From IMG/VR virus record IMGVR_UViG_3300031994_000073: a DNA stretch of 64,000 nt, one strand, 5' to 3'. The stretch is from an uncultured virus (IMG/VR IMGVR_UViG_3300031994_000073) (Duplodnaviria; Heunggongvirae; Uroviricota; Caudoviricetes). Numbering within the stretch: the stretch's first letter is position 1; each line of letters opens with the position of its first letter. Below the pieces are notes generated by a model. That model did no database searches and was not told the origin of the DNA. It saw only the letters and a program-made list of their open reading frames with translations. This document shows, one piece after another, positions 2,198 through 14,140 of the stretch. Both the position numbers and the translations under genes were made by a program.

Positions 2198-2238
2198 TCT
2201 CCTTAAACAGACGGGCAGAAGTCACCAAAGTCACCAGC

Positions 2239-2493
2239 CTAAAAAAGCTTGAACTTAGCATCAAAGGCAGCGTCAATTTCCTTGGTAGTGACAATACCGT
2301 TCTTTTTGATTTCTTCCATGAATTCCGGAGTATTCATCTTTGCGAATACTGCGTCAAAGGCTTTCAACCATTTCTTGTACTCGGGGCAAGCCTTGTCAAT
2401 CATGGCAGAATCCTTCATGATATAGTTCATCTTTGCGATGCGAAGCTTGATAGCGAGTTCAATAACAGTTTCACGGATTGTCTTCTGAGCCAT
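2239..2493 (-). CDS. hypothetical protein
   Basis: Start trimmed to ATG 2493 (MAQK) after GGAG RBS; promoter at 2521-2557. Confidence 0.7.
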   Translation of the reverse strand: MAQKTIRETVIELAIKLRIAKMNYIMKDSAMIDKACPEYKKWLKAFDAVFAKMNTPEFMEEIKKNGIVTTKEIDAAFDAKFKLF

Positions 2494-2520
2494 AGTAGAA
2501 TCTCCAAATTGATTTGTTTT

Positions 2521-2557
2521 ACGAGTAAAATATAACAACTATTTGGAAACCTGTCAA
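2521..2557 (-). promoter_or_regulatory. sigma70-like early promoter
   Basis: TTGACA-17-TATATT. Confidence 0.8.
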
Positions 2558-2849
2558 TGGGACAATAAGGAAAAAATTTGAAAATATTACACTTTTTCTT
2601 AAAATCCTCCACGTACTGATCGTTGTTGGCAATTATACAGCAATTTTTGCGTATCTTATTCTCAGACGAATAATTCAAAAATGTGTAATATTATGACGTT
2701 TTCCGGGTTAAATTAAGCACCAATTTTGGGCGCATTTTCGGATTTCTTCTTGTTTTTGCTTTTTTGCTTCCTCGGCGTAGTATGCCGCGACCGCTGCTAC
2801 TGCTTCAGGATCCATGCGGAGTTTAAAATCCACTTGCCGGTCAGTAATC

Positions 2850-3218
2850 TTAATGACTTGAGAAAGTTTGCTTGCGTTCATTGTTTTTCTTCACTAAGGA
2901 AAGTTCTCTGTGCAGCTGTGCTTGCCACTTATTCCAGCAATCTTCAAGAAGCCGACGCTTTTTGAGTACCACATCTCTGCGTCCAGCAAATGCATCTGGA
3001 AGGCCGTTCAATTCTGTCACGCAGTTCCATTGCGGAATGTAGCGCGGCTTTAACTGATAGTGGACAAACCATTCATCTGTTTCTTTTAGTCGCTCAAGGA
3101 ACGTAAAGTGTCTGCCGTTGATCTCGACAAAGTAGTCCTCAATGCCACTAACGGTCTGTCTTTTAAGCACTTCCTTATGGGACTGGATGAATGACTTGAT
3201 TTCTTCAGTTTTTAACAT
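2850..3218 (-). CDS. hypothetical protein
   Basis: Start trimmed to ATG 3218 (MLKTEE), abutting the stop of 3220..3663. Confidence 0.6.
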   Translation of the reverse strand: MLKTEEIKSFIQSHKEVLKRQTVSGIEDYFVEINGRHFTFLERLKETDEWFVHYQLKPRYIPQWNCVTELNGLPDAFAGRRDVVLKKRRLLEDCWNKWQAQLHRELSLVKKNNERKQTFSSH

Positions 3219-3219
3219 T

Positions 3220-3663
3220 TTACATTTCCTTAAGGATTTCAGCGCAAGCCTTGAGCTCTTTCTGAGCGTTTTCCTTGACAAGCGTTTCGTTATATTCTGC
3301 GATCTTCTTCAAAGCATCTGCGACGGAAACGTAGCCTTCATCGTCAGTCCAGCCTTTGTACTCGAAGATCATGCTTTCAGCAAGCTGGTCAATCATCGGC
3401 CATTCCGGAGTCTCTGCTTCATAGCCTGCAAGCGAACAGTCGGCCATCTTCGTGCCGAAGTCAATGTAGGGGCGCCAGTCAGCCTTCGGAAAGTGAGAGC
3501 ACTTCACGCAAGTAAAGCCGCTCATTCCCCAGCCAGCCGGACGGCCAAGAGAGTCGTGCTTGCGGACTTTTCCTTCATAACGTTTCAGCGTCATTGTCAC
3601 CTTTTCGGCGCCAAGATCAAATTCAACAACTCGGGTCTTGCTTTTAACTTCTTTGTAAGCCAT
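3220..3663 (-). CDS. hypothetical protein
   Basis: 147 aa ORF in operon. Confidence 0.75.
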   Translation of the reverse strand: MAYKEVKSKTRVVEFDLGAEKVTMTLKRYEGKVRKHDSLGRPAGWGMSGFTCVKCSHFPKADWRPYIDFGTKMADCSLAGYEAETPEWPMIDQLAESMIFEYKGWTDDEGYVSVADALKKIAEYNETLVKENAQKELKACAEILKEM

Positions 3664-3665
3664 GT

Positions 3666-3884
3666 TTAAGCCTCTTTATGCAGAGTGAAGATAAGGTTGT
3701 TGCTGTAGGAAATGAATACGATGTCGCCGACTTTGTATAGGCTTGTATTAGAACGAGTGATCTCAAACACAACCCCGTTCTCGTTGATGTCCTTGACGAT
3801 GCCAAACTTGGAGTATGTATCGCCCGGATAAATTTGAACTTCTTTGTTCAGATAAGTGTCAATCATATAGTTAGACTTAGCCAT
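3666..3884 (-). CDS. small hypothetical protein, possibly Sm/SH3-like beta-barrel
   Basis: 72 aa; YLNKEVQIY...GIVKDINENGVVFEI pattern resembles Sm-like folds (inference). Confidence 0.55.
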   Translation of the reverse strand: MAKSNYMIDTYLNKEVQIYPGDTYSKFGIVKDINENGVVFEITRSNTSLYKVGDIVFISYSNNLIFTLHKEA

Positions 3885-3922
3885 GATTCAAACTCTTGTT
3901 AAACTGTTACCATCAATTTCCA

Positions 3923-3959
3923 ACGTAGATAATATAACAACTTTCTTGGAGTCCGTCAA
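3923..3959 (-). promoter_or_regulatory. sigma70-like early promoter
   Basis: TTGACG-17-TATATT; flanks nearly identical to those of 1197-1233. Confidence 0.85.
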
Positions 3960-4082
3960 CTAAAAAATCATAAAAATATGAAAAATTATGTAAAACAAAG
4001 TTTACATACGAAAAACGCCCAAATTTCATCAATTTGGGCATATTGTCATTTTATGACAAAAATAGGTAAAATTTGATCTGAG

Positions 4083-4105
4083 CGGAGAGTGCAGGACTCG
4101 AACCT
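4083..4105 (-). pseudogene. 3' remnant of a tRNA (Ser-like T arm and acceptor strand)
   Basis: AGGTTCGAGTCCTGC-ACTCTCC-G abutting the stop codon of endonuclease 4106..4735; no matching 5' half found. Confidence 0.75.
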
Positions 4106-4735
4106 TTATTCTCCGATGAAATTACTAGCTATAGAAATCCATCTTTTTGGCTCTGCATACATTTCTTTCCATTTTATTCTTAAAACTTGCCAACCATTTT
4201 CAATAAGTTTTGAATCTTTCCTGAGATCTGATTCAGCTTGTTGTTCATTTCGTTGATGTTGAGCACCGTCAATTTCTATGCAACGTTTCTTTTTAACCCA
4301 AGCAAAATCTAATCTATATTGAAAGAACTGATAATTGTATTCATAATCTTTATCATTAAACTCATTTTCTATTACTTTTGTGAAGAATTCTTCCGGATAG
4401 CTTTTCTTGCTCGAATGGCAGTTCATCCATCCATGCCATCTGCCTGATCTATATCCTTCTAAAGCGCGTTCACGTAAAATTTGTTTTTGTTCAGCAGAAA
4501 CTGAGTGACCATTATAAGGTGCAGGATTAGGATTTTTCTTACATCTGCGTTCATGTAAACGCATACCGCACAATGTAGTAATTACCGTATGTCCACAAAA
4601 TTTACATGTTAATGAACGTTTTGGCTGTTGTCCACATTTAATTTTATGAACTTCATGTAAATGTTTATATTTTAGTCCTTTAGAATCAAAAACATCAGTA
4701 CAATAAGGACACGGCCATTTAAAATGTATTTTCAT
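4106..4735 (-). CDS. DUF559/Vsr-like putative homing endonuclease with N-terminal Zn fingers
   Basis: CPYC..HLHEVH and CKFC..HERRC; RLDFAW..IEIDGAQH..DLRKDSKLIENGWQVLRI; AAGGAG RBS; TATAAATA upstream. Confidence 0.85.
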   Translation of the reverse strand: MKIHFKWPCPYCTDVFDSKGLKYKHLHEVHKIKCGQQPKRSLTCKFCGHTVITTLCGMRLHERRCKKNPNPAPYNGHSVSAEQKQILRERALEGYRSGRWHGWMNCHSSKKSYPEEFFTKVIENEFNDKDYEYNYQFFQYRLDFAWVKKKRCIEIDGAQHQRNEQQAESDLRKDSKLIENGWQVLRIKWKEMYAEPKRWISIASNFIGE

Positions 4736-4779
4736 CTTTTCTCCTTTTTAGCTTTTTATGGTTATTCCCGTAACCATTT

Positions 4780-4787
4780 TATTTATA
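4780..4787 (-). promoter_or_regulatory. T4-type late promoter TATAAATA
   Basis: Exact match to the T4 gp55 consensus, upstream of the endonuclease. Confidence 0.7.
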
Positions 4788-4842
4788 CAGTTAGATGCTT
4801 TGGAGAAAGCATCAGCTGGCGGGAACCAGTTGTCCTGTATTA

Positions 4843-4927
4843 CTGCGGGTGCAGGATTCGAACCCGCGGCCCATTACTGAGCGGTTCGTTAGCACCGAAC
4901 TGGTTTAGACCACTCACCCAACCCGCA
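4843..4927 (-). tRNA. tRNA-Ser(GCT), divergent
   Basis: TGCGGGT/ACCCGCA acceptor, G73, loop GT-GCT-AA, long variable arm. Confidence 0.85.
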
Positions 4928-4933
4928 AAAAGC

Positions 4934-5035
4934 AAGATACCATTTTGTTTCACCTCCGGCATGTGCTGCCGGCGCTCTATACTTAAGCTATTGTTCCCAA
5001 GGCGGAATAAGAAATATTCTTGCTGTTAGTATCTT
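4934..5035 (-). ncRNA. AAGAT-CAGCA family element 1
   Basis: AAGATAC-TAACAGCAA...GTATCTT terminal stem; internal D-arm-like TAGCTTAAGTATAGAGC. Confidence 0.55.
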
Positions 5036-5040
5036 TAAAG

Positions 5041-5124
5041 TAGCCAAGGAAGGACTTGAACCTTCACGCCCTTGCGGGCAGGGGTGTTTGAGACCCCGGC
5101 GTCTACCAATTCCGCCACTTGGCC
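5041..5124 (-). tRNA. tRNA-Leu(CAA)
   Basis: Cloverleaf, loop CT-CAA-AC, variable arm. Confidence 0.92.
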
Positions 5125-5348
5125 AAAAATAAAAATAATTCATTACAAGTTAGCACAGATTGTTTCATGCTATGTTCCTCTGTGTCCCGGGTGACTTTCC
5201 GGCCCTTCTTACATAGGATTGCGTATCGTTATATCACCTCACTCAAGTATCGCCGCTTTAAATGCGCATTAGCAAGCTAACGACTCAAATAAGAACTTCA
5301 ATTCCTGGCAGGCCAATATGTCCAGTGAAGTAACGAATTATTTTGTAG

Positions 5349-5420
5349 CAGGGACACCTGGACTCGAACCAAGATCCACGGTTTTGGAGACCGCCATTCT
5401 GGCCATTGAACTATATCCCT
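5349..5420 (-). tRNA. tRNA-Trp(CCA)
   Basis: Cloverleaf, loop CT-CCA-AA. Confidence 0.92.
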
Positions 5421-5431
5421 AGATAAATTAG

Positions 5432-5502
5432 TTGCCCGTGATGGACTTGAACCACCAATTCATGAGTCAGAGTCATGCGTGTTACCATTACACCAACGGG
5501 CA
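5432..5502 (-). tRNA. tRNA-Gln(CTG)
   Basis: Cloverleaf, loop CT-CTG-AC. Confidence 0.92.
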
Positions 5503-5508
5503 ATAAAC

Positions 5509-5734
5509 AAGATACTGTCGCGGTTGAGTCGCCGCTGTGCTCTCACCATATCTCTCCTGGTAGGCAACAGCTTGCTGCAAGTTCATTCAGTTTCTACTGA
5601 CATATTCCGTCACTTGTACGAACAGGCCGTGGGAGCAGGCAACGATATTACTACCGCCGGCAATTACCCTACCCTAATTCCACATTTTGATTGTGTCATC
5701 GTTAGTAAGCGTTTTATTTTGCTGTAAGTATCTT
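5509..5734 (-). ncRNA. AAGAT-CAGCA family element 2
   Basis: AAGATAC-TTACAGCAA...GTATCTT terminal stem. Confidence 0.55.
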
Positions 5735-5737
5735 ATA

Positions 5738-5814
5738 GTCCCATAGCCGAGATTTGAACCCGGACCTCATGCGCCACAAGCATGCGTGCTTTACCAATTA
5801 ACACCACTGCGGGG
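5738..5814 (-). tRNA. tRNA-His(GTG)
   Basis: Loop TT-GTG-GC, T arm TTCAAAT; imperfect acceptor stem, ends approximate. Confidence 0.8.
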
Positions 5815-5822
5815 ATGTATAG

Positions 5823-5892
5823 TTGCGAAGGTGGGTACCGCCCCCACGGAGGCCGGCTTATGAGACCGGCTGGAATACTTATTCTCCTCGCA
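5823..5892 (-). tRNA. atypical tRNA-Met(CAT)
   Basis: TGCGAGG/CTTCGCA acceptor, loop CT-CAT-AA, minimal D loop, T loop GGCGGTA. Confidence 0.75.
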
Positions 5893-5902
5893 ATAAAAAT
5901 TC

Positions 5903-6008
5903 AAGATGCTCCATTGGACTGACGGCCGGTCTCGAACCAGCATCTCGGGAAATCCCGTGCTCTAGCCTATTGAGCTACTCCAGCGTTCAGATCTGCTGTT
6001 TGCATCTT
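5903..6008 (-). ncRNA. AAGAT-CAGCA family element 3 with tRNA-like core
   Basis: AAGATGC-AAACAGCA...GCATCTT; internal D arm GCTC/GAGC, short stem CGGGA/TCCCG without a 7-nt loop, T arm GCTGG-TTCGAGA-CCGGC. Confidence 0.6.
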
Positions 6009-6011
6009 TAG

Positions 6012-6083
6012 AGCCCTATCCCGGACTCGAACCGGGGACACCTGCTTGGAAGGCAGAAATGTTAACCACTACACCAATAGGGC
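6012..6083 (-). tRNA. tRNA-Gly(TCC)
   Basis: Cloverleaf, loop CT-TCC-AA, U73. Confidence 0.92.
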
Positions 6084-6092
6084 AAATGTTAG

Positions 6093-6165
6093 AGCCCCAT
6101 GTCGGACTCGAACCGACAACTTTCTCCATGGCAAGGAGATATGCTACCAATTGCATCAATGGGAC
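6093..6165 (-). tRNA. tRNA-Gly(GCC)
   Basis: Cloverleaf, loop TT-GCC-AT, U73. Confidence 0.92.
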
Positions 6166-6169
6166 TTAG

Positions 6170-6260
6170 AGGAGATGGAGGGATTCGAACCCCCGTGCGG
6201 AATGGTTACCGCCCATGGTTTTCAAGACCAGTCCGATAAGCCGTGCTCTGGCACATCTCC
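6170..6260 (-). tRNA. tRNA-Ser(TGA)
   Basis: Cloverleaf, loop CT-TGA-AA, long variable arm. Confidence 0.9.
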
Positions 6261-6273
6261 AAAAAAATTCTAG

Positions 6274-6357
6274 AGCTGAGAGAGGGACTCGAACCCACGA
6301 AGTGTTTCCACCACAGTTTTGCAGACTGTGTCCTTTGCCGCTCGGATTCACCTCAGC
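6274..6357 (-). tRNA. tRNA-Cys(GCA) with long variable arm
   Basis: Loop CT-GCA-AA, U73, variable hairpin GTG-GAAA-CAC. Confidence 0.85.
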
Positions 6358-6489
6358 ATAGTTTATTTATTCTGGCTGTGAGATCCCTAAACTTCAACTT
6401 ATTCTCACCGTTCTCCTGAGAAGGAGTTTTTGGTTTACGCTGGACTTCCACCAGATTTAGCCGGAGTTAATCGGCTCACCAGAATTTCG

Positions 6490-6562
6490 TGCTCTCGGCA
6501 GGACTCGAACCTGCATTATCGGATTCGTAGTCCGATGGTCTATCCAGTTAGCCTACGAGAGC
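6490..6562 (-). tRNA. tRNA-Arg(ACG)
   Basis: Cloverleaf, loop CT-ACG-AA. Confidence 0.92.
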
Positions 6563-6568
6563 AAATAG

Positions 6569-6651
6569 TCGCTCAGGAGGGACTCGAACCCCTCACGCCT
6601 TTCGGCACGGGCTTCTTAGACCCGCGTGTCTACCAATTCCACCACCGAGCG
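6569..6651 (-). tRNA. tRNA-Leu(AAG)
   Basis: Leu-type body, loop CT-AAG-AA, A73. Confidence 0.88.
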
Positions 6652-6662
6652 AAATGTTTTAG

Positions 6663-6746
6663 TGACCTAAGAGGGACTCGAACCCCCACGCCCTTGCGGG
6701 CATCTGATCCTAAGTCAGGCGGGTCTACCAATTCCCCCACTAGGCC
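6663..6746 (-). tRNA. tRNA-Leu(TAG)
   Basis: Loop CT-TAG-GA, variable arm. Confidence 0.9.
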
Positions 6747-6753
6747 AAATTAG

Positions 6754-6826
6754 TGCCTCCCTCCCGTAACGATCGGGAATCCTCGGATTTTCAGTCCGTT
6801 GCATAGACCATCTTTGCTAGAGAGGC
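6754..6826 (-). tRNA. tRNA-Phe(GAA)
   Basis: Loop CT-GAA-AA; T loop ATCGTTA. Confidence 0.88.
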
Positions 6827-6832
6827 AAAAGC

Positions 6833-6892
6833 AAGATACATTTGGATTCAAGATTAAAAATTGAATTGGGTTAAAGTTGCTGCATGTATCTT
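6833..6892 (-). ncRNA. AAGAT-CAGCA family element 4 (minimal)
   Basis: AAGATAC-ATGCAGCAA...GTATCTT. Confidence 0.55.
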
Positions 6893-6895
6893 TAG

Positions 6896-6969
6896 TCCGC
6901 AGGGTAGGATTTGAACCTACAACCTCCAGTATATCAGACTGACAAACGAACCAATCGTTATGCCTGCGG
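6896..6969 (-). tRNA. tRNA-Ile(GAT), divergent copy
   Basis: CCGCAGG/CCTGCGG acceptor, loop CT-GAT-AT. Confidence 0.8.
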
Positions 6970-6978
6970 AAAATTTAG

Positions 6979-7052
6979 TCCGCAACCCTGGACTCGAACC
7001 AGGAACCTCCACCTTATCAGAGTGGCTATCTAACCAATTGCTATAGCTGCGG
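6979..7052 (-). tRNA. tRNA-Ile(GAT)
   Basis: CCGCAGC/GTTGCGG acceptor, loop CT-GAT-AA. Confidence 0.88.
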
Positions 7053-7256
7053 AAAAAGAGCGAAGACCCCTTAAGTCCAGTTAAAAACAGTTATATCGCT
7101 GTCACTGTTACCATCTTTTCAACGGCGGCCAACCAAGGGAAGATGTTACCAACCTCGTTTCTTTTCATCAAGAAGCGTAGAATGGAGAAGTCGTATTTAA
7201 CGTGGTCCTCTCGCGACGGCACGCTCCCAGTAAGCCAAGGACTCTCACTGGATTAG

Positions 7257-7331
7257 TTCCCGAGGAGGGATTCGAACCCCCGACCTTCTGTGTGTAAAAC
7301 AGCGGCTCTAAACCAACTGAGCTACCCGGGA
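7257..7331 (-). tRNA. tRNA-Val(TAC)
   Basis: Cloverleaf, loop TT-TAC-AC. Confidence 0.92.
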
Positions 7332-7394
7332 ATAAGCACTGCTGATATACTCAAGTTCGTTTGTTTCAGTTCTCTGTTGCATATCAGTATTTCG

Positions 7395-7467
7395 TGGACG
7401 GGAAGGGACTCGAACCCTTAACCTTCTGCTTGCAAAGCAGTTGCGCTACCAGTTGCGCCACGAGCCC
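7395..7467 (-). tRNA. tRNA-Ala(TGC)
   Basis: G3:U70, loop TT-TGC-AA. Confidence 0.9.
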
Positions 7468-7617
7468 ATAAAAGGTGAAGAACGGGCGTAGATAAGTCAT
7501 GAACTCATCCAAACTTCACTGATGTATGAAATCTAACTTATACAAGCATTGGACGTTAGAATCTCCATCTTCTCTGTGCAGAAAATGCTAAACACTCACA
7601 GAGTTCCGTTTTTGAAG

Positions 7618-7688
7618 CGGTCTCAACGGGTCACGATCCCGTACCTCCGGCGTGACAAGCCGGTATCCATCCATTAAACGATGAGACC
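7618..7688 (-). tRNA. tRNA-Asp(GTC)
   Basis: Loop TT-GTC-AC, G73; T loop ATCGTGA. Confidence 0.88.
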
Positions 7689-7698
7689 AAAATGTTAG

Positions 7699-7772
7699 TA
7701 GCGCTGTCGGGACTCGAACCCGAATTTCCGACTTGAAAGGCCGACGAACTGAACCAGTTATTCGACAGCGCC
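7699..7772 (-). tRNA. tRNA-Glu(TTC)
   Basis: Loop CT-TTC-AA. Confidence 0.9.
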
Positions 7773-7776
7773 ATAG

Positions 7777-7848
7777 TAGCGGGGGTCGGGATCGAACCGA
7801 CGACTTCCAGGTTATGGGCCTGGCGAGCTACCACTGCTCTACCCCGCA
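7777..7848 (-). tRNA. tRNA-fMet(CAT)
   Basis: Initiator-type body with 1:72 mismatch, loop CC-CAT-AA. Confidence 0.88.
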
Positions 7849-7862
7849 ATAAAAAGCGTTAG

Positions 7863-7935
7863 CTGGGAAGGAGGGACTCGAACCCCCAACATAGTGGTTA
7901 ACAGCCACCCGTTCTGCCATTAGAACTACAACCCA
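7863..7935 (-). tRNA. tRNA-Asn(GTT)
   Basis: Loop CT-GTT-AA, G73. Confidence 0.9.
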
Positions 7936-7944
7936 ATGTAATAG

Positions 7945-8017
7945 TGGACAATAAGGGACTCGAACCCTTGACCTCCTGAGTGCAAATCAGGCGTTCTTCC
8001 AACTGAACTAAAAGCCC
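7945..8017 (-). tRNA. tRNA-Ala(TGC), second copy
   Basis: G3:U70, loop TT-TGC-AC. Confidence 0.9.
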
Positions 8018-8155
8018 ATAAGTTTCGCCCCTTACTCAACTACCTGCAGTTAGCTTTTCGTGGACTTGTCAATTCCCGGGTGGACTTGAACCACCGTGTC
8101 CGTCCGTTTTAGCGTCCGGTCCAACTACCGTCATTGGACAGTCATTGACCATTAG

Positions 8156-8242
8156 TGGGTGGCGAGGGATTCGGACCCCCAAAGCCCGTTAGGGCGGCGG
8201 AGTTACAGTCCGCCCTGACTCACCAGCCGTCAGCGGCCACCC
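8156..8242 (-). tRNA. tRNA-Tyr(GTA)
   Basis: Loop CT-GTA-AC, variable arm; T loop TCCGAAT. Confidence 0.88.
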
Positions 8243-8425
8243 ATAAGAAACTGTTCTCAGTGCAGCGACCCCGCAACCTGCACCATTCGCTGTTCTTCAC
8301 CAAATCGTATTGAAACAATCCACTGAAGTGCTCGCCTGTGCCGTAACCATACTTGCAACCAATTCCTGCTCTGCGCATCAAGCCAAAATCAATCGTTTTC
8401 AGATTACTGCTATTTTTGAACAGTA

Positions 8426-8500
8426 TCGGGCTAGTCGGATTCGAACCGACGACCTCTTGATCCCAAATCAAGCGCTCTAGCCAGACTGAGCTACAGCCCG
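8426..8500 (-). tRNA. tRNA-Pro(TGG)
   Basis: CGGGCTG acceptor, loop TT-TGG-GA. Confidence 0.92.
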
Positions 8501-8655
8501 TTATTCGCCCTGTACTTAAACCCTCTAGAAAAGTCTGTTCTAGGACTTGCCTATCGTTGTCCCTATCTCAACCAGACTCGAACTGATTTTTCTGCCACGA
8601 TTGACAGCGTCTTATCCTGAAGACCTTTTTGATAGTTTCTATTGTAAGCCGTTAG

Positions 8656-8693
8656 TGCCCCAGGAAGGACTCGAACCTTCAACCCACGGATTA
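8656..8693 (-). pseudogene. 3' half of an interrupted tRNA
   Basis: TAA-TCCGT-GGGTT-GAAGG-TTCGAGT-CCTTC-CTGGGGC-A; pairs with the 5' half at 9435-9467. Confidence 0.88.
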
Positions 8694-8702
8694 TGGCTTT
8701 TA

Positions 8703-8775
8703 TGGGAGTACCGAGACTCGAACTCGGATTCGACGATTAAGAGTCGCCTATACTAGCCAATTGTATTATACTCCC
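8703..8775 (-). tRNA. tRNA-Lys(CTT) nested inside the interrupted tRNA
   Basis: GGGAGTA/TACTCCC acceptor, loop CT-CTT-AA; 5' end overlaps the last codons and stop of the endonuclease. Confidence 0.88.
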
Positions 8776-9419
8776 ATTAGGAATTTACGGACAATTTCAA
8801 TCCATTCTTTTGGATTTTTATAGCATTCTTGCCAAGGAATCCTAAGTTCTTTCCAGCCGTTTTCTGTTAGAAGCTTATCTTTTGCAGCATCTCTCAGTTT
8901 TTGAGTATTGTCTGTTTGATGTTGCTTCCCATCAACTTCTATGCACAGTTTCTTGGTCGGCCAAGCAAAATCTAAAGAAAATCTACCAAAGGAAAATTCA
9001 GTTTTGTAATCTTCATTTTCTCTAAGATCAAATTCATCAGCTAGAACTTTTATCAACCATTTTTCTGGCCAACTATGTTCATTATTCCAACGGCATTGCC
9101 CTATGTTATAGGCTCTGCCTTCAGAATGTGCTAACTTCATTGATTCAAAAATTTTAGATTTCGTCTTCGCAGAATGTTTTTTGTCCTTCCATGAAGGAAT
9201 TATTTCGCCATTTCTGTAGCGTTCACTTAGTCTTTCTCCTTTAATTCTCAGAATATCATTTGTTTCTTTGTTTTTTCCTTTATTCCAGGGTTCTTTGCCT
9301 TTCATGTGATTGACATAAACTCTATCTGGATTTTCAGGACAAAGTCGCTCATGATTTCGGTGAGCATTTGGATTTTTACAAGTTCTGCCACAGAATTTAC
9401 AAATACAAGACGTTTCCAT
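8766..9419 (-). CDS. DUF559/Vsr-like putative homing endonuclease (Zn finger, NUMOD3-like)
   Basis: CKFC..HERLC; PWNKG; KKHSAKTKSK; FSLDFAW..IEVDGKQH..DKLLTENGWKELRI; start trimmed to ATG 9419 after TATAAATA (9424-9431). Confidence 0.85.
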   Translation of the reverse strand: METSCICKFCGRTCKNPNAHRNHERLCPENPDRVYVNHMKGKEPWNKGKNKETNDILRIKGERLSERYRNGEIIPSWKDKKHSAKTKSKIFESMKLAHSEGRAYNIGQCRWNNEHSWPEKWLIKVLADEFDLRENEDYKTEFSFGRFSLDFAWPTKKLCIEVDGKQHQTDNTQKLRDAAKDKLLTENGWKELRIPWQECYKNPKEWIEIVRKFLMGV

Positions 9420-9434
9420 ATTGTATTTATATTC

Positions 9435-9467
9435 AGTCCGCTGCGCTACCAATTGCGCCACTGGGGC
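9435..9467 (-). pseudogene. 5' half of the interrupted tRNA
   Basis: GCCCCAG-TG-GCGC-AATTGGTA-GCGC-A-GCGGA-CT, ending in the anticodon loop. Confidence 0.88.
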
Positions 9468-9575
9468 ATGGAATTGATCTTGTAATCAATATGTTCTATT
9501 TATTACAAGAACTTTTCAAAAACTGCCATTTTTTCAATTTTCTGCCAATCTTCGCGAGAGAGGCATTTTATTTTG

Positions 9576-9724
9576 ACGTATCAAATATAAAAAATTATTT
9601 TGATTTTGTCAAGGGTAAAAATTGAAATTTTTTCATTTTTTTCAAAAATTTTCAATTTTTCTTGTTGAGATCGAGCAATCAATTTCAACGTAGTAAATAT
9701 AACAATTAGTTTCCAATCCGTCAA
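9576..9724 (-). promoter_or_regulatory. two tandem sigma70-like promoters (9576-9612, 9688-9724) upstream of the tRNA array
   Basis: TTGAC(A/G)-17-TATATT in both. Confidence 0.8.
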
Positions 9725-9818
9725 CCAATTTTTTCAAATTTTTTCAATTTTTTCTGTAAACTTTTGTAAACAGAAACAGTTGATACAGTTGATAGATTGT
9801 TGATAACTGTCAATTTAG

Positions 9819-10192
9819 TGGGGACCGGAGGAGTTGAACCTCCACAGGAACTTCACCTGCGTTATTAGTTCCATGCACCTATCTATTGAGAGCTTACCTC
9901 AACTCGTGTGATGCACCGCCTCTCCTTATCCATCCTTCCATCAAGAAGTAACTTCAGCCCGATTATGGGAGCTACCCAGTCTTCTACTTGCAACTTCGAG
10001 ACTTCTGTCGTTTCAGCGAGTTCCGATCCTATCTGCTCTAGCTAAGAGCTAGCCATTCACGGTTCTACTTACTCCTTTATATGGGACTTTCATTAGGAAG
10101 GACCAAGATCGCAGCTACAAAGAGCAACCAATGCAACTACTTTCGGCTTGTCGTATCATCTTTGTCTTACTCGCCATTGGCGGAGGGTCCCC
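9819..10192 (-). ncRNA. 374-nt RNA with tRNA-like acceptor stem and T arm
   Basis: 5' GGGGACC pairs with 3' GGTCCCC-A; T arm GGAGG-TTCAACT-CCTCC; followed by CTA like the tRNAs. Confidence 0.7.
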
Positions 10193-10203
10193 GAATATCT
10201 TAG

Positions 10204-10275
10204 CGCCTTCACCCGGACTCGAACCAGGAATAGCTGATTACAAATCAGCTCGTTTACCGATTAACGTATAAAGGC
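10204..10275 (-). tRNA. tRNA-Thr(TGT)
   Basis: Loop TT-TGT-AA. Confidence 0.9.
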
Positions 10276-10354
10276 AAATAAAAGCGCTGGAGCTGAAAGT
10301 TAGCAGCATTACTCGAGTTGTCTGCAGTTCAATCCGCTCCTATCGCAATTTTAG

Positions 10355-10427
10355 CTGGGAAGACAGGACTCGAACCTGTGACATGGTGGTTAACAGCCAC
10401 CCGTTCTACCGACTGAACTACAACCCA
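10355..10427 (-). tRNA. tRNA-Asn(GTT), second copy
   Basis: Loop CT-GTT-AA. Confidence 0.9.
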
Positions 10428-10657
10428 AAAAGGGAGCGCGACCCTAACGGCTACGGCCCGAAATGAAACTTGTACTTTGTTTCAAATGATGTTCGCCTAA
10501 CATCTCTTCGCTCAATACCGGTGAGACCGCCAATCGTGCACCTTAAAGGCGATCTCCCTCAACACCCATAAAGCGTCTCGTCAGGTGAGACCTCCCTCAA
10601 TTAGCGGCTCGGCTGATTACGTTAGTATCGCTATCGCTAAATGGCTGTTGAGATTAG

Positions 10658-10730
10658 CGCCCGCAGAGGGATCCGAACCCCCGACCTGATGATTACTAAA
10701 CATCTGCTCTACCAGCTGAGCTATACGGGC
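10658..10730 (-). tRNA. tRNA-Thr(AGT)
   Basis: GCCCGTA acceptor, loop TT-AGT-AA. Confidence 0.85.
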
Positions 10731-11064
10731 AAAAGGGAGCAGAAACACTGTGAGCATCGGTGATGCTCTTGGCCAATCTGAAGCGTGAACGCGTAATCGG
10801 CTCCAGAATAAAGGCACGAGGACTGTTTGCTACCTGTCAGGATTGACTTACCTTTGCTATTGCCTTACTCGGTTAGGAGCGGTTAGCATTGGGCAATCAC
10901 TGATACAACTTTCAGGGAACGTGAGGAGTACGGACCGGACTCGCACCGCGTCAGCCGCGCCGTTAAAGAAGCGGGGCTCCAAAACTAAGCAACTCAACCT
11001 ACCTTTAACCCCGGTAGGCATTAGTCGCACGCTCTAAACAGTAGTATCTCGTTGTTTCCGCTAG

Positions 11065-11138
11065 TAGTCCCATTTGGCGTCGAACCAAATTTTCCAGGTT
11101 GAAAACCTAGCGTCCTATCCATCGTAGACGATGGGACC
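11065..11138 (-). tRNA. tRNA-Glu(TTC), second copy
   Basis: Loop TT-TTC-AA. Confidence 0.88.
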
Positions 11139-11203
11139 ATAGATAAACGGATTTCCAAATTTTCAATTTTCCACTTCGCTTCACGAGCGAGGCGTTTTGA
11201 TTG

Positions 11204-11240
11204 ACAGATCAAATATAAAAATTATTTTTGATTCTGTCAA
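11204..11240 (-). promoter_or_regulatory. sigma70-like promoter
   Basis: TTGACA-17-TATATT. Confidence 0.75.
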
Positions 11241-11448
11241 CCGATTTTTCAAAATTTTTCAAAATTTCAACTGAAAAATTTTGAGGGTTGCGGCGCAGAT
11301 TCGCAAGCGATTCTGCATAGACCCGCTCGTTAGGGTTTTGTCGTGAGCCAGATCAACCGCGCTTCCCTTGTCAGCGCCAGAGGGCTTTTTCAACGAGCAA
11401 GGCTTTAGCCTAGGATTTTCTGTAATCAAACCGTTGTTGATTTTGATT

Positions 11449-11485
11449 ACGTAGTAAATATAACAACTTTATTGCTACTTGGCAA
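11449..11485 (-). promoter_or_regulatory. sigma70-like promoter
   Basis: TTGCCA-17-TATATT-TACTACGT. Confidence 0.8.
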
Positions 11486-11716
11486 TTGGAAATTTGAAAA
11501 TTTTTTCCGAAATATTACACTTTCTTCAAAATAGTCAAAAATCCGTGTTATATTGGCAATTTATCAACTGTTAGCGAACCACAGGAATCTCGCAGGTTTA
11601 TCAGGTTTTTGTGTAATAAACCGACGTTTTCCATGTAATTTTAAGCAACAGTTTTTAGGACGTATCCTCTAAATTGCCGCCTGACAAAATGTTTTATCAA
11701 CACTTTATCAACATAG

Positions 11717-11803
11717 TAGGCATACGAGGAGTCGGACCTCTCTGCACCGCCCTGGATTGTTTATGCAGCCCGGGTTATGAGTCCGGCCCAAGGTAGTACG
11801 CCT
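11717..11803 (-). tRNA. D-arm-less tRNA-like gene, anticodon CAT (Ile2 or Met)
   Basis: AGGCGTA/TATGCCT acceptor, loop CT-CAT-AA, T arm GAGG-TCCGACT-CCTC, no D stem, long variable region. Confidence 0.75.
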
Positions 11804-11869
11804 ATTTCGTTTAACTTGTTACCGCAGTAGCGTTCTGCTTTGAGAGAATTTCACTCTCGCCAATTTTAG

Positions 11870-11940
11870 TTGCCCGCGGTGGTACCGCCCCACCTCCAAG
11901 AGATTCAAAGTCTCCTATACTACTTCTATACGAGCGGGCA
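11870..11940 (-). tRNA. tRNA-Gln(TTG), atypical T loop
   Basis: TGCCCGC/GCGGGCA acceptor, loop CT-TTG-AA, T loop GGCGGTA. Confidence 0.82.
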
Positions 11941-12121
11941 AAAAGTGCCGGGCTACCGGCTAATGCGAAAGACGCCGAGGAACGCAAGTTTACCGCGAAT
12001 AGACTCTTGTTCCTCTAGTCTGCGCTGGGTTGATTCCCACCTGTCCTTCCGGGCTCGAACCGGACACTCCCCCGTCAAGGAGGCGTTTTGCCAACCGATA
12101 AACTAAGGCACGCAGATTTAG

Positions 12122-12194
12122 TAGTGCATTCGGGATTCGGACCCGAGTCTCCAGCTTGAGAGGCTAGCGAACTAACCAACTATTCTAATGCACC
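12122..12194 (-). tRNA. tRNA-Glu(CTC)
   Basis: Loop CT-CTC-AA. Confidence 0.88.
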
Positions 12195-12202
12195 AAATGT
12201 AG

Positions 12203-12282
12203 TACGCTGGGCGGGGATCGAACCCGCATTTTCAACTCCAGTTACGGATAACGGATTAGAAGTCCGAACCGGTTACCAGCGT
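12203..12282 (-). tRNA. D-arm-less tRNA-like gene, anticodon TCT (Arg)
   Basis: ACGCTGG/CCAGCGT acceptor, loop CT-TCT-AA, T arm GCGGG-TTCGATC-CCCGC, no D stem, long variable region. Confidence 0.78.
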
Positions 12283-12295
12283 GTAATGTCAATAG

Positions 12296-12985
12296 TTAAA
12301 GATTGTTGATCTTTGAAACTAAGTCTAAAACGAATTTCTCTTGCTTTTCTTTAGAAAGCTTCTTATATTTACTCCATCTAATTCTATCTAGGCATTTCCA
12401 TCCATCAGACTTTAATCTTTCAGTTCTAAGAATGTCATGTTCTAATATTCTTTTATCTAAATAATGTTGTTCTCCATCAATTTCTAAATAAGTCTTTTTA
12501 TCAGGCCAAGCAAAATCAAGATAATATCCGAGTATTTTGTAATTCTGTTCGTAAGTGATCCTATTATTCTCGAACACCGTTTTGAAGTATTGCTCTGGAT
12601 AGCTATCTCCTTTAGAATGGTGATTCAATACATAAGGTACTTTTTCTGGATGTTCAGCTAAATAATGTTTTCTACTTTCAGAGATTCTTTTCTTAGTCTC
12701 TTCTGAATGCTTCTTACCTAAATAAGCTGGCATCAATTCTTCCGTTTCATACCTTTTCTTTAATTTTTCTGCCGCTGCTTTTAATCTTACATCGTCTTCA
12801 CCGGTTCGTCCAGCATTCCAAGCTTTACATCCAGGAGCATATTTTCTTTTTCCATCTAAGATTACGTATTGAATATGAACTTTCGGACCTTTTTCACAGA
12901 CTCTTTTATGTTCTATAAGATCTATTTTTCTAGGAAATAAATCTTTACAGTACGGACATTTCCAATTTTCATTGCACCTCTTCAT
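12296..12985 (-). CDS. DUF559/Vsr-like putative homing endonuclease (Zn finger, NUMOD3)
   Basis: CPYC..HKRVC; YLGKKHSEETKKRISES; YLDFAW..LEIDGEQH..DILRTERLKSDGWK; TTTAAATA upstream. Confidence 0.85.
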   Translation of the reverse strand: MKRCNENWKCPYCKDLFPRKIDLIEHKRVCEKGPKVHIQYVILDGKRKYAPGCKAWNAGRTGEDDVRLKAAAEKLKKRYETEELMPAYLGKKHSEETKKRISESRKHYLAEHPEKVPYVLNHHSKGDSYPEQYFKTVFENNRITYEQNYKILGYYLDFAWPDKKTYLEIDGEQHYLDKRILEHDILRTERLKSDGWKCLDRIRWSKYKKLSKEKQEKFVLDLVSKINNL

Positions 12986-13008
12986 GATTTATTTAAACTC
13001 AAAACTTA

Positions 13009-13081
13009 TGGGGACATAGGGACTCGAACCCTAAATCGCGCATTAAAAGTGCGCAGTAATAACCAGTTTTACTATATCCCC
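13009..13081 (-). tRNA. tRNA-Lys(TTT)
   Basis: Loop CT-TTT-AA. Confidence 0.88.
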
Positions 13082-13098
13082 AAGGGATTCTAAAATTA

Positions 13099-13182
13099 TC
13101 GGCCTGAACGGACTCGAACCGATACGGCGTTACCGCCGGGGGATTTTAAGTCCCCTGTGTCTACCAATTTCACCACAAGCCG
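13099..13182 (-). tRNA. tRNA-Leu(TAA)
   Basis: Loop CT-TAA-AA, variable arm. Confidence 0.9.
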
Positions 13183-13187
13183 TGAGA

Positions 13188-13340
13188 TTAGTAGTCGTAT
13201 AATTCTGATTGGGAACGTTTTCGGGTTTTGATCTTTATACCCGCTTGAGAGGCAAAAGACCTGGCCGTCTTCAAATTCTTGGCCCAACGCTGTTCTTTTT
13301 CTTCGCGTGTTTCAATGTGTCTTTCATGATTCTTTTTCAT
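13188..13340 (-). CDS. small basic hypothetical protein (50 aa, MKKNHERH...), absent from the ORF track
   Basis: ATG to TAA open frame with GAGG RBS, downstream of the promoter at 13390-13426. Confidence 0.55.
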   Translation of the reverse strand: MKKNHERHIETREEKEQRWAKNLKTARSFASQAGIKIKTRKRSQSELYDY

Positions 13341-13389
13341 TTTTGCCTCTTGTTGTTAGTTGCTTTTAAAAAGTATTGTTGTTTTTGTT

Positions 13390-13426
13390 ACAGATAAAAT
13401 ATAATAACTTTTATTCAATCTGTCAA
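13390..13426 (-). promoter_or_regulatory. sigma70-like promoter
   Basis: TTGACA-17-TATATT. Confidence 0.75.
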
Positions 13427-13468
13427 CTGTTTTAATGTATTTATAACAAAGAATTTTCTAAATCTTCA

Positions 13469-14140
13469 TTATAGAACGAATCCGCCGGTGATTGCTTTGT
13501 CAACGACAGCAGCGAGCTTCTCAGCGTATTCAAGCTGCTTCTTAGCGTAAGCTCTTTGCTTCTCGACGATTTCGTTGCAGGCAGCCTTGATCTCGTCTTC
13601 GGAGTACCATTCCTTCTTGTCAAGCCAGACGTAGGTCTTGAGATAGTAAAGATCGCCGCCATCGGTGCGGACCGGCGTAAGAGTCTCAAGATCAACGTCA
13701 CGCCAGAGCTGTAACTTGACGTGATAGCCTTTCGGTTCCCACGTGCGGATGAACGGAAATCTCGTCTTCACATCTTCATACTTCACCAGTCCCTTAGCGG
13801 CTGCTTGGATCATTTGGACCTTCGCCTCGTGAGCGATAGCTTTCTTCACTGCAAGCATTAAGTGCAGTAAGTCTTCACAGAGTTCTCTACTGAAGGCACG
13901 AGGATAACCGCCTTGAAGCGACCAGCCCTTTGGCTTGGTAACACAAAGATGCGCAGTGTTGTACGTCTTTTCAGCCAGCTTAGTGATGACTTGGTCAAAC
14001 CAATCAGTATTAGACTCAGCATTGCTGATGGCGTCAGCGTTATCCTTCATGAAGGCATTGAAACTGCCTGCAGTCCAGAACGGAATGCCACGGAAGACCT
14101 TTTGCTGTTCCTTAGTAAGATAGCTGAAAAAAGACGGCAT
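13469..14140 (-). CDS. hypothetical protein
   Basis: 223 aa ORF, GAGGA RBS. Confidence 0.75.
   Translation of the reverse strand: MPSFFSYLTKEQQKVFRGIPFWTAGSFNAFMKDNADAISNAESNTDWFDQVITKLAEKTYNTAHLCVTKPKGWSLQGGYPRAFSRELCEDLLHLMLAVKKAIAHEAKVQMIQAAAKGLVKYEDVKTRFPFIRTWEPKGYHVKLQLWRDVDLETLTPVRTDGGDLYYLKTYVWLDKKEWYSEDEIKAACNEIVEKQRAYAKKQLEYAEKLAAVVDKAITGGFVL

Follow-up and report, generated by a model that had tools for sequence, protein, structure and literature searches.

To our knowledge, the ways in which a homing endonuclease persists in an essential gene are confined to hiding within a self-splicing intron or intein and to lying beside genes. I-Ssp6803I, for example, is a restriction-enzyme-like PD-(D/E)XK homing endonuclease of the group I intron in the Synechocystis transfer RNA (tRNA)-fMet gene and targets the anticodon-loop region. 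It rides a self-splicing intron, and splicing of the RNA gives back the tRNA. Here, we describe a different arrangement in 64,000 nucleotides (nt) of DNA from an uncultured gut phage of the Caudoviricetes (IMG/VR record IMGVR_UViG_3300031994_000073), a stretch which is called the window throughout. A tRNA-Lys(CTT) gene in this DNA is split in its anticodon loop by an insert that holds a putative homing endonuclease gene and a complete second tRNA-Lys(CTT); no ribozyme was detected, and splicing could not restore the gene. The insert is very probably a mobile cassette that moves at the level of DNA and is not an intron, consisting of a promoter-like box, a zinc-finger/Vsr-like homing endonuclease and a fused spare tRNA-Lys(CTT), all inserted after U33 of the target gene.

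Several described systems resemble this locus in part. I-Bth0305I is the prototype of the EDxHD homing endonucleases and combines a Vsr-like domain with a cut that leaves a two-base 5' overhang (PMC3239194). The same paper describes the family, whose members occur in introns and inteins, by the composite motif E-D-x-H-D and lists free-standing members of the Hef type (PMC3239194). In I-Bth0305I and in the window enzyme alike, a Vsr-like nuclease domain forms the C-terminal part and a DNA-binding part (predicted for the window enzyme) the N-terminal one, and the conserved E, D, H and D residues of the window enzyme may correspond to those of the I-Bth0305I motif, which include D196, H213 and D222. 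The sequence link between the two is weak (profile E 0.089 to 3r3p). However, I-Bth0305I belongs to a phage recA gene, in which it occupies a group I intron, and uses NUMOD/helix-turn-helix (HTH) modules (PMC3239194), whereas the window enzyme has a C2H2-like zinc finger, lies in no intron, has a tRNA gene as its probable target and is fused to a tRNA gene.

Similarly, T4 SegB is a free-standing GIY-YIG homing endonuclease encoded in a tRNA cluster and recognises the T-psi-C motif (PMC2330249), and its homologues are described as having no isotype preference (PMC13096335). SegB and the cassette have in common an intron-less enzyme in a phage tRNA array that recognises tRNA-gene sequence (probably so in the present case) and carries neighbouring tRNAs with it. 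SegB lies between genes, whereas here the endonuclease gene sits inside the anticodon loop of its target, which it destroys, and has a link to Asn(GTT)/Lys(CTT). The SegB-like intergenic layout, in which host genes are left intact, is not what is found in the window, where the target gene is split.

The mobile endonuclease open reading frames (mORFs) of fungal mitochondria offer a third comparison, as they enter an essential gene (atp6, atp9, cox2 or nad3) and bring a replacement C-terminus (PMC3630166). The mORFs and the cassette share the logic of breaking a gene and bringing a diverged duplicate that retains its function, with the displaced native piece left behind. However, mORFs as described there replace the 3' part of a protein-coding gene, in frame and in organelles, whereas the cassette supplies a whole RNA gene in a phage, and the stop codon of its open reading frame (ORF) lies inside the spare gene. 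A literature search found no paper whose title or abstract opening describes a split layout of nuclease plus spare tRNA.

The split tRNA-Lys(CTT) gene and its empty allele

The resident gene and the insert lie on the minus strand of the window and comprise the following features, with the basis of each assignment in brackets.

9435..9467, minus strand: resident 5' half, tRNA positions 1-33, ending at U33 (sequence)
8656..8693, minus strand: resident 3' half, from T36 to the discriminator A73, 38 nt (sequence)
8694..9434, minus strand: inserted cassette, 741 nt, in place of the CT (C34, U35) of the intact allele (blastn against L060 and L062; run contig)
9424..9431, minus strand: TATAAATA box, 4 nt 5' of the ORF ATG, a candidate promoter which we take to be of the T4 late type (motif count)
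8766..9419, minus strand: endonuclease-like ORF of 217 amino acids (aa), with an N-terminal C2H2-like zinc finger and a Vsr-like domain (Pfam, AlphaFold2, Foldseek)
8703..8775, minus strand: complete cassette tRNA-Lys(CTT) (Rfam 60.2 bits; ARAGORN 115.3)
8694..8702, minus strand: 9-nt spacer TAAAAGCCA, from the cassette tRNA to the right junction (sequence; not in empty alleles)
9584..9724, minus strand: two sigma-70-like promoter matches 5' of the 5' half (consensus match only)

The resident gene is interrupted after U33, with its 5' half at 9467-9435 (GCCCCAG TG GCGC AATTGGTA GCGC A GCGGA CT) and its 3' half at 8693-8656 (TAATCCGT..CTGGGGCA; T AA TCCGT GGGTT GAAGG TTCGAGT CCTTC CTGGGGC A). 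The two halves pair over 7/7 positions of the acceptor stem and 5/5 of the anticodon stem (one G-T). An initial annotation, made from the letters alone, had reported a tRNA gene split at the anticodon loop with fully pairing halves, and an insert of about 740 bp holding the TATAAATA box, a DUF559/Vsr-like endonuclease and an intact tRNA-Lys(CTT); all of these were located where it had placed them. In its default mode ARAGORN called neither the split resident tRNA nor, beyond the cassette copy, any other tRNA-Lys(CTT) in the window. With long overlapping introns allowed, the split gene was called as c[8655,9467] with a score of 111.3, the highest of eight intron-type calls in the window, and the remaining seven (100.0-106.6) are chimeras of separate annotated tRNAs.

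The 5' half is 33/33 identical to the intact tRNA-Lys(CTT) genes of L008-L010, L060-L063 and other contigs. The last 35 nt of the 3' half, searched as an exact pattern, match intact genes in three viral contigs, in which the preceding TAA agrees too. As both halves are letter for letter the ends of intact tRNA-Lys(CTT) genes of other contigs, the split did not arise by chance. Nor is it an assembly artefact, since independent contigs of runs X1 and X2 span both junctions of the filled form and a record, G001 (184.7 kilobases (kb), about 54% complete), is 100% identical over 1601 nt. No second copy of the resident-type gene was found in the part of the genome that G001 covers.

To find uninterrupted relatives, viral contigs were scanned exactly with the 3' half, which gave 3 loci, and metagenome contigs with the 5' half, which gave 16 loci (from their length and flanks, two of the viral loci in this count of 19 appear to be the same contigs as two of the metagenome loci). 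At each of the three viral loci the 3' half is part of an uninterrupted tRNA-Lys(CTT), and the beginning of that gene is the same as the 5' half of the window (...GCGGACT-CTT-AATCCGT...). Among the metagenome loci 14 are uninterrupted, one (L066) is interrupted and one (L073) is the window's own record, so that an uninterrupted tRNA-Lys(CTT) is present in 17 of the 19 loci retrieved by one half or the other, the exceptions being L073 and L066.

Two of the uninterrupted metagenome contigs, L060 and L062, are syntenic with the window, aligning to 10952-9435 at 94.7% identity over 1538 nt and to 8693-7952 or 8693-7695 at 97.4-97.6%. When these empty alleles are compared with the window by blastn, their positions 1-1533 correspond to 10952-9435 and position 1536 onward corresponds to 8693 downward, with only CT between. 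This is a presence/absence polymorphism at one exact site among close relatives, with 741 nt in one form and 2 nt (C34, T35) in the other. It had been noted at the outset that CAT, GAT, GAA and CTT were all conceivable as the original anticodon, that CTT would need two lost nucleotides, and that an empty allele would be the test of a like-for-like exchange. The allele of L060 and L062 is that empty allele; it is a tRNA-Lys(CTT), exactly C34 and T35 are missing from the window, and the ambiguity is settled for CTT. The replacement of like for like, tRNA-Lys(CTT) for tRNA-Lys(CTT), is supported. The Phage GenBank collection held no close DNA relative of the window, giving only matches the size of tRNA-Pro, and the best protein matches in it are 24-36% identical.

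The joined form was also seen in sequencing runs. A contig of run X8 skips the 741 nt, with AG on the plus strand (CT on the minus strand) between the halves and 158 letters on its shorter side, and DNA run X2, which may come from the source sample, gave the same joined form with only 30 letters on the shorter side, just under a 31-letter rule. Because the joined form retains CT, it represents the empty allele and not a splice product. No joint lacking CT was seen in the run contigs, and contigs cannot show absence.

A second invaded lineage is represented by L066, a 12.7-kb contig that carries the same 5' half with AAAATAATAAATATAATATGG right after GCGGACT. Its enzyme (P0005) is 211 aa long and 66% identical to that of the window, and its nested tRNA-Lys(CTT) is homologous and overlaps the end of the ORF too (GGA-GAA-TAA), followed by a 12 nt spacer. 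Here, 726 nt stand in place of 12 nt, and the resident 3' remainder consists of the T arm and the 3' acceptor strand only; the variable loop is gone, and the anticodon stem has lost its 3' strand. As this strand has been lost, the outer gene of L066 has not been maintained. The upstream flank of L066 matches that of the empty contigs L063 and L008 (95.2% over 1539 nt, ending exactly at ACT), the downstream flank matches that of the empty contig L069 (94.6% over 781 nt), and neither is related to the flanks in the window. The left border is the same, which points to one target site invaded in different genomic backgrounds. The two cassettes are 79-85% identical where they can be aligned, and the resident 5' half agrees at 33/33 positions between the two filled alleles and with the intact genes. 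Since the dead halves have not drifted while the cassettes have diverged, repeated recent invasion of intact genes is a simpler account than a single old insertion.

The same contig holds another interrupted tRNA gene. At 1788-2438 of L066 (stored orientation, minus strand), about 651 nt interrupt a tRNA-Leu(TAA) at U|AA, the classic position of a group I intron. This insert contains a 179-aa HNH ORF behind the TATAAATA box, no spare tRNA and no Rfam intron match, and its borders would permit exact restoration (U before, G at the end).

The alternative that the insert in tRNA-Lys(CTT) is an intron, spliced by itself or by proteins and leaving the outer tRNA functional, has to be weighed against these borders. 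The anticodon loop is generally known as the classic site of group I introns in bacterial tRNAs, both halves are perfect and pair fully, one possible ARAGORN reading of the gene is Ile(GAT) interrupted by a 739-nt intron, and the region is present in an RNA library. However, the CTT of the intact allele cannot be rebuilt, as C34 and T35 are gone, and only about 15 nt (5') and 9 nt (3') lie outside the ORF and the nested tRNA, which is too little for a ribozyme core. Furthermore, L066 is without the anticodon-stem 3' strand and the variable loop, and the sole joined form seen retains CT and equals the empty allele. No match to the Rfam intron families was obtained at E<=1 in window 4000-14000, and none in L066, L011, L014 or L032. 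An intron is therefore scarcely credible, and this explanation is close to refuted. The anticodon, the Rfam result, the 12-nt loss in L066 and the retained CT all agree with the earlier description of the element as non-splicing.

The endonuclease and the spare tRNA

Searches of Pfam with the 217-aa ORF matched DUF559 (6e-9) and MTES_1575 (1.8e-9). The N-terminal modules gave weak matches only (zf-C2H2_jaz 2e-4; NUMOD3 0.45), and NUMOD3 is annotated in some of the homologues. In a large protein collection, 169 homologues were found at E<=0.001, the best of them 83% identical and many of them on contigs of 250-465 kb. Across an alignment of 46 sequences C8, C11, H24 and C28 change rarely or never, and there is no variation at E162, D164, H168, D178 and D182 (IEVDGKQH...RD..KD). 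The window ORF is full length and has every invariant residue of this alignment.

A profile search of PDB sequences matched 3hrl (DUF559) at 1.1e-5 and, weakly, 3r3p at 0.089. The structure predicted by AlphaFold2 has a predicted local distance difference test (pLDDT) score of 84.1, and Foldseek placed 3r3p, the catalytic domain of I-Bth0305I, at ranks 1 and 2 (E 3e-4, template modelling (TM) score 0.82-0.83, 24% identity), followed by 3hrl (DUF559) and the Vsr structures 1cw0 and 1vsr. The model thus shows a C-terminal domain with the Vsr-like nuclease fold of a characterised homing endonuclease.

The window also encodes a paralogue of this enzyme at 12296-12985 (minus strand), 229 aa long and 30% identical, with matches to DUF559 (3.1e-6) and NUMOD3 (6.4e-4). 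The paralogue starts 22 nt past a complete tRNA-Lys(TTT) (13008-13082). At 12203-12282, 13 nt past its end, lies an unusual tRNA-like element, which has TCT in its anticodon loop, and of which the D arm is defective and the extra arm long (Rfam 35.4 bits, without an ARAGORN call).

The cassette tRNA is joined to the endonuclease gene by an overlap of 10 nt (G-GGA-GTA-TAA), and the sequence confirms the earlier observation that the first 10 nt of the nested tRNA double as the last codons and the stop of the ORF. The cassette tRNA of the window was aligned with its counterparts in L066, L032 and L014, whose enzymes are 57-66% identical to that of the window. All 84 of 84 cells of this alignment pair, in comparison with 29-51% in slid controls, and a compensatory change is present in 8 of 21 pairs, a number reached in none of 500 shuffles. 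The acceptor stem, whose sequence doubles as the last codons of the ORF, accounts for two of these compensated pairs. Selection acts on the structure of the cassette tRNA, which compensatory change keeps foldable.

The cassette and resident tRNAs of the window are identical at 37 of 74 aligned positions and differ in every stem. They share the whole anticodon loop (CTCTTAA) and the central 11 bp around the insertion point, GACTCTTAATC. With these 11 bp identical, any resistance of the cassette tRNA gene to the enzyme must, if real, rest on the flanking stems. No locus was obtained when the viral contigs were scanned for exact matches to either of two stretches of this cassette tRNA.

Regarding signals, the TATAAATA box has 9 matches in the window versus 1.57 expected, and none of 100 shuffles reached 9. 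Of 36 distinct related loci, 11 have an exact box upstream of the enzyme gene at a distance of no more than 100 nt, compared with 27 of 1551 background windows. The two sigma-70-like matches are TTGACA-17-TATATT (11/12) at 9612-9584 and TTGACG-17-TATATT (10/12) at 9724-9696, and judged by their consensus they could drive read-through of the whole cassette. A-rich repeated units of the GAAAAAATTGAAAAAAT type flank both promoter-like sites (window 9500-9800, minus strand), where this section of the tRNA array begins. Between the 3' half and tRNA-Pro (window 8530-8650, minus strand), there is a T-arm-like hairpin, ATCAG-TTCGAGT-CTGGT, with partly complementary ends; it is a possible tRNA remnant and, as it is also found in the empty alleles, lies outside the cassette. 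A further Rfam tRNA call without an ARAGORN call is located at 5917-5984 (minus strand, 43.6 bits).

The enzyme family in phage tRNA arrays

A profile-guided scan of the viral contigs returned 45 loci, which with L011 make 46, several of them near-duplicates (L015/16, L024/26, L033/34, L041/42, L048/49 and L028/57); 36 distinct viral loci were examined. Nearly all of the 46 enzyme loci sit in tRNA arrays, and in 29 of them a tRNA on the same strand starts -50 to +15 nt from the ORF stop. These abutting tRNAs are mostly Asn(GTT) (20, three of them with inserts) or Lys(CTT) (4), with five others (Trp, Asp, Tyr twice, Gln), and 12 of the 29 overlap the ORF.

A 5'-half grammar (acceptor, D arm, anticodon-stem strand, CT) was applied to the 130 nt upstream of 30 enzyme genes. 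Clean orphan 5' halves that end at U33 directly upstream of the enzyme were found in five of these 30 loci (L018, L030, L051, L040 and L021), none of them part of an annotated tRNA. Four of these halves lie at L018 1914-1945, L030 1872-1904, L051 1909-1940 and L040 1934-1965, and each is followed by a box (exact TATAAATA in the first three, GATATATAG in L040) and then by the enzyme gene. The halves of L018, L030 and L051 are Asn-like, from a library match for L018 and L030 and by eye for L051. No matching 3' strand was found downstream of these four. In L021, a Gln-like 5' half at 1769-1800 ends in GGCT, 14 nt before the enzyme gene, and about 300 nt past the enzyme (~2695-2720) there is a remnant of a T arm and acceptor with 6/7 pairs to the 5' half. 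An extra 82-aa ORF lies between the enzyme gene and this remnant, and no spare tRNA was detected in L021.

Other members are more varied. L014 and L032 look intergenic and carry decayed 5'-half-like sequence in register, with 15/29 and 13/29 matches. These scores are in the top 2.1% and 4.1% of 1059 GACT-anchored 29-mers, a comparison made post hoc in which most of the high scorers appear to be real tRNA 5' halves. When the 5' half was instead aligned locally with the 120 nt that precede the gene in four relatives, the matches did not reach significance (background fractions 0.05-0.53) and were less suggestive than the in-register count. In L011, at 2238-3115, a type-II (Ser-like) tRNA is split, with 7/7 acceptor pairs and an ARAGORN score of 110.8. 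The order in this case is different, as the spare tRNA-Ser(GCT) (2286-2371) comes first, followed by a 31%-identical enzyme (2477-3070) whose end overlaps the 3' half. An exact scan for an empty allele with the 3' half of L011 matched its own contig only.

These family data also bear on the possibility that the endonuclease gene is a passenger or dead, and that the split arose through illegitimate recombination or rearrangement in the tRNA array, not through the enzyme. Phage tRNA arrays of this kind are heavily rearranged, as seen from the gene order, which differs between the window, L009, L066 and L072, and the right borders of the inserts are ragged. The left border, however, falls after U33 in two genomic backgrounds, and orphan 5' halves end at the same position before five more relatives of the enzyme. 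Moreover, the isotype bias is strong, with Asn(GTT) or Lys(CTT) making up 24 of the 29 abutting tRNAs, no invariant residue is missing from the full-length ORF, and the nearest structure is that of a proven homing endonuclease. A passenger gene is thus very unlikely.

A different possibility is that the cassette is kept mainly for its cargo, a tRNA-Lys(CTT) variant that escapes a host tRNA-Lys nuclease, with the enzyme merely spreading the allele. The family-linked tRNAs are almost only Asn(GTT) and Lys(CTT), and the cassette and resident tRNAs differ in every stem. Yet the resident and cassette anticodon loops are identical (CTCTTAA), although mutations in the anticodon loop are the escape route reportedly named in the title of an eLife paper on phage tRNA escape. 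In favour of the cargo reading, host defences that cleave tRNA-Lys have been described, together with a tRNA-Lys variant of phage T5 that escapes (PMC11464382), and SegB amplifies a tRNA gene against a tRNA-cleaving defence (PMC13096335). As the main reason for the layout cargo is highly improbable, and it is compatible with, and does not exclude, selfish homing.

Some of the Asn(GTT) genes that follow the enzyme carry small inserts within the anticodon, after GT. They measure 78 nt in L054 (2435-2585) and 44 nt in L041/L042 (2598-2717), are hairpin-forming and are the sole departure from a perfect cloverleaf (ARAGORN scores of 112.6 and 109.6; Rfam 54.9 bits for L054). L032 has another tRNA match, 133 nt long, at 3879-4011 (an insert of ~60 nt). 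Folding of the 44-, 78- and ~60-nt inserts (L041, L054 and L032) by minimum free energy (MFE) gave no archaeal bulge-helix-bulge. The Asn(GTT) inserts may be scars, immunity inserts or small introns. In addition, the tRNA array of L054 contains, at 3628-3799, a match to a permuted transfer-messenger RNA (tmRNA; RF04321, 65.1 bits, above the gathering score).

Proposed spread of the cassette and its meaning for phage tRNA arrays

The insertion borders, the identity of the target, the relatives without the insertion and the diverged copy at the same left border are direct observations. The homing activity that the initial annotation had proposed is supported by comparison, through the one-site polymorphism, the left junction in a second background and the orphan halves at U33, and is probable. 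In a mixed infection, the enzyme would cut the intact anticodon-arm DNA of tRNA-Lys(CTT) in phages that are free of the cassette, and the break would be repaired from the cassette-bearing genome, so that the cassette is copied in. The broken resident gene would be dead, and the cassette tRNA-Lys(CTT) would supply its function. With the spare tRNA, the phage would be unharmed and could not easily shed the cassette. The first entry into a new background may proceed by end-joining or microhomology, and later transfers by ordinary homing through the flanks, which are 94-97% identical. By analogy, the two missing bases fit a two-base-overhang cut of the I-Bth0305I type, which is offered as a suggestion.

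Several points weigh against this account. The right borders are ragged, with 2 nt lost in the window and 12 nt in L066, which is not the product of clean homologous homing and points to at least some end-joining or microhomology events. The central 11 bp are the same in both tRNA genes, which leaves the immunity of the cassette tRNA gene unexplained. G001 is about 54% complete, and a second tRNA-Lys(CTT) may yet lie elsewhere in the phage. The presence of both alleles in a single sample rests on the X2 contig with its 30-letter shorter side. Finally, the run data are contigs, and as RNA libraries may contain DNA they are silent on splicing and expression.

The overlap between the ORF and the spare tRNA could have a regulatory consequence. 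As the stop codon occupies tRNA positions 8-10, cleavage by RNase P would leave the messenger RNA (mRNA) without a stop, and maturation of the tRNA would thus strip the stop codon from that mRNA molecule. The maturation of the tRNA would in this way be coupled to the output of the enzyme, probably limiting it. A more far-reaching reading, which we regard as unlikely, is that the Vsr-like family acts as a gene drive for tRNA alleles, each member cutting the anticodon loop of one isotype and writing in a diverged tRNA that resists both defences and the enzyme itself and has the enzyme's stop codon in its 5' end. The cassette would then be a self-limiting mutualist, and no pure parasite, through which gut jumbo phages exchange tRNA alleles. 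If this were true, RNase P maturation would shut off the nuclease message automatically, and the isotypes mostly cut would be Asn(GTT) and Lys(CTT), which host defences that cleave tRNAs often target.

Returning to the mobile cassette, it represents a third route by which a homing endonuclease may persist, in this case in an RNA gene, namely to break the gene and bring a complete spare. The present analysis adds a Vsr-like enzyme family, an empty site defined exactly by syntenic contigs, another invaded lineage and covariation in the spare tRNA, together with a family picture of the U33 border, the Asn/Lys bias and the fusion of the stop codon into the tRNA. Such cassettes mark candidate nucleases that recognise the DNA of the tRNA anticodon arm, and the overlap of a stop codon with the 5' end of a tRNA is an unexplored coupling of a selfish gene to a useful one. 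The layout would help to explain how phage tRNA arrays are remodelled and exchanged.

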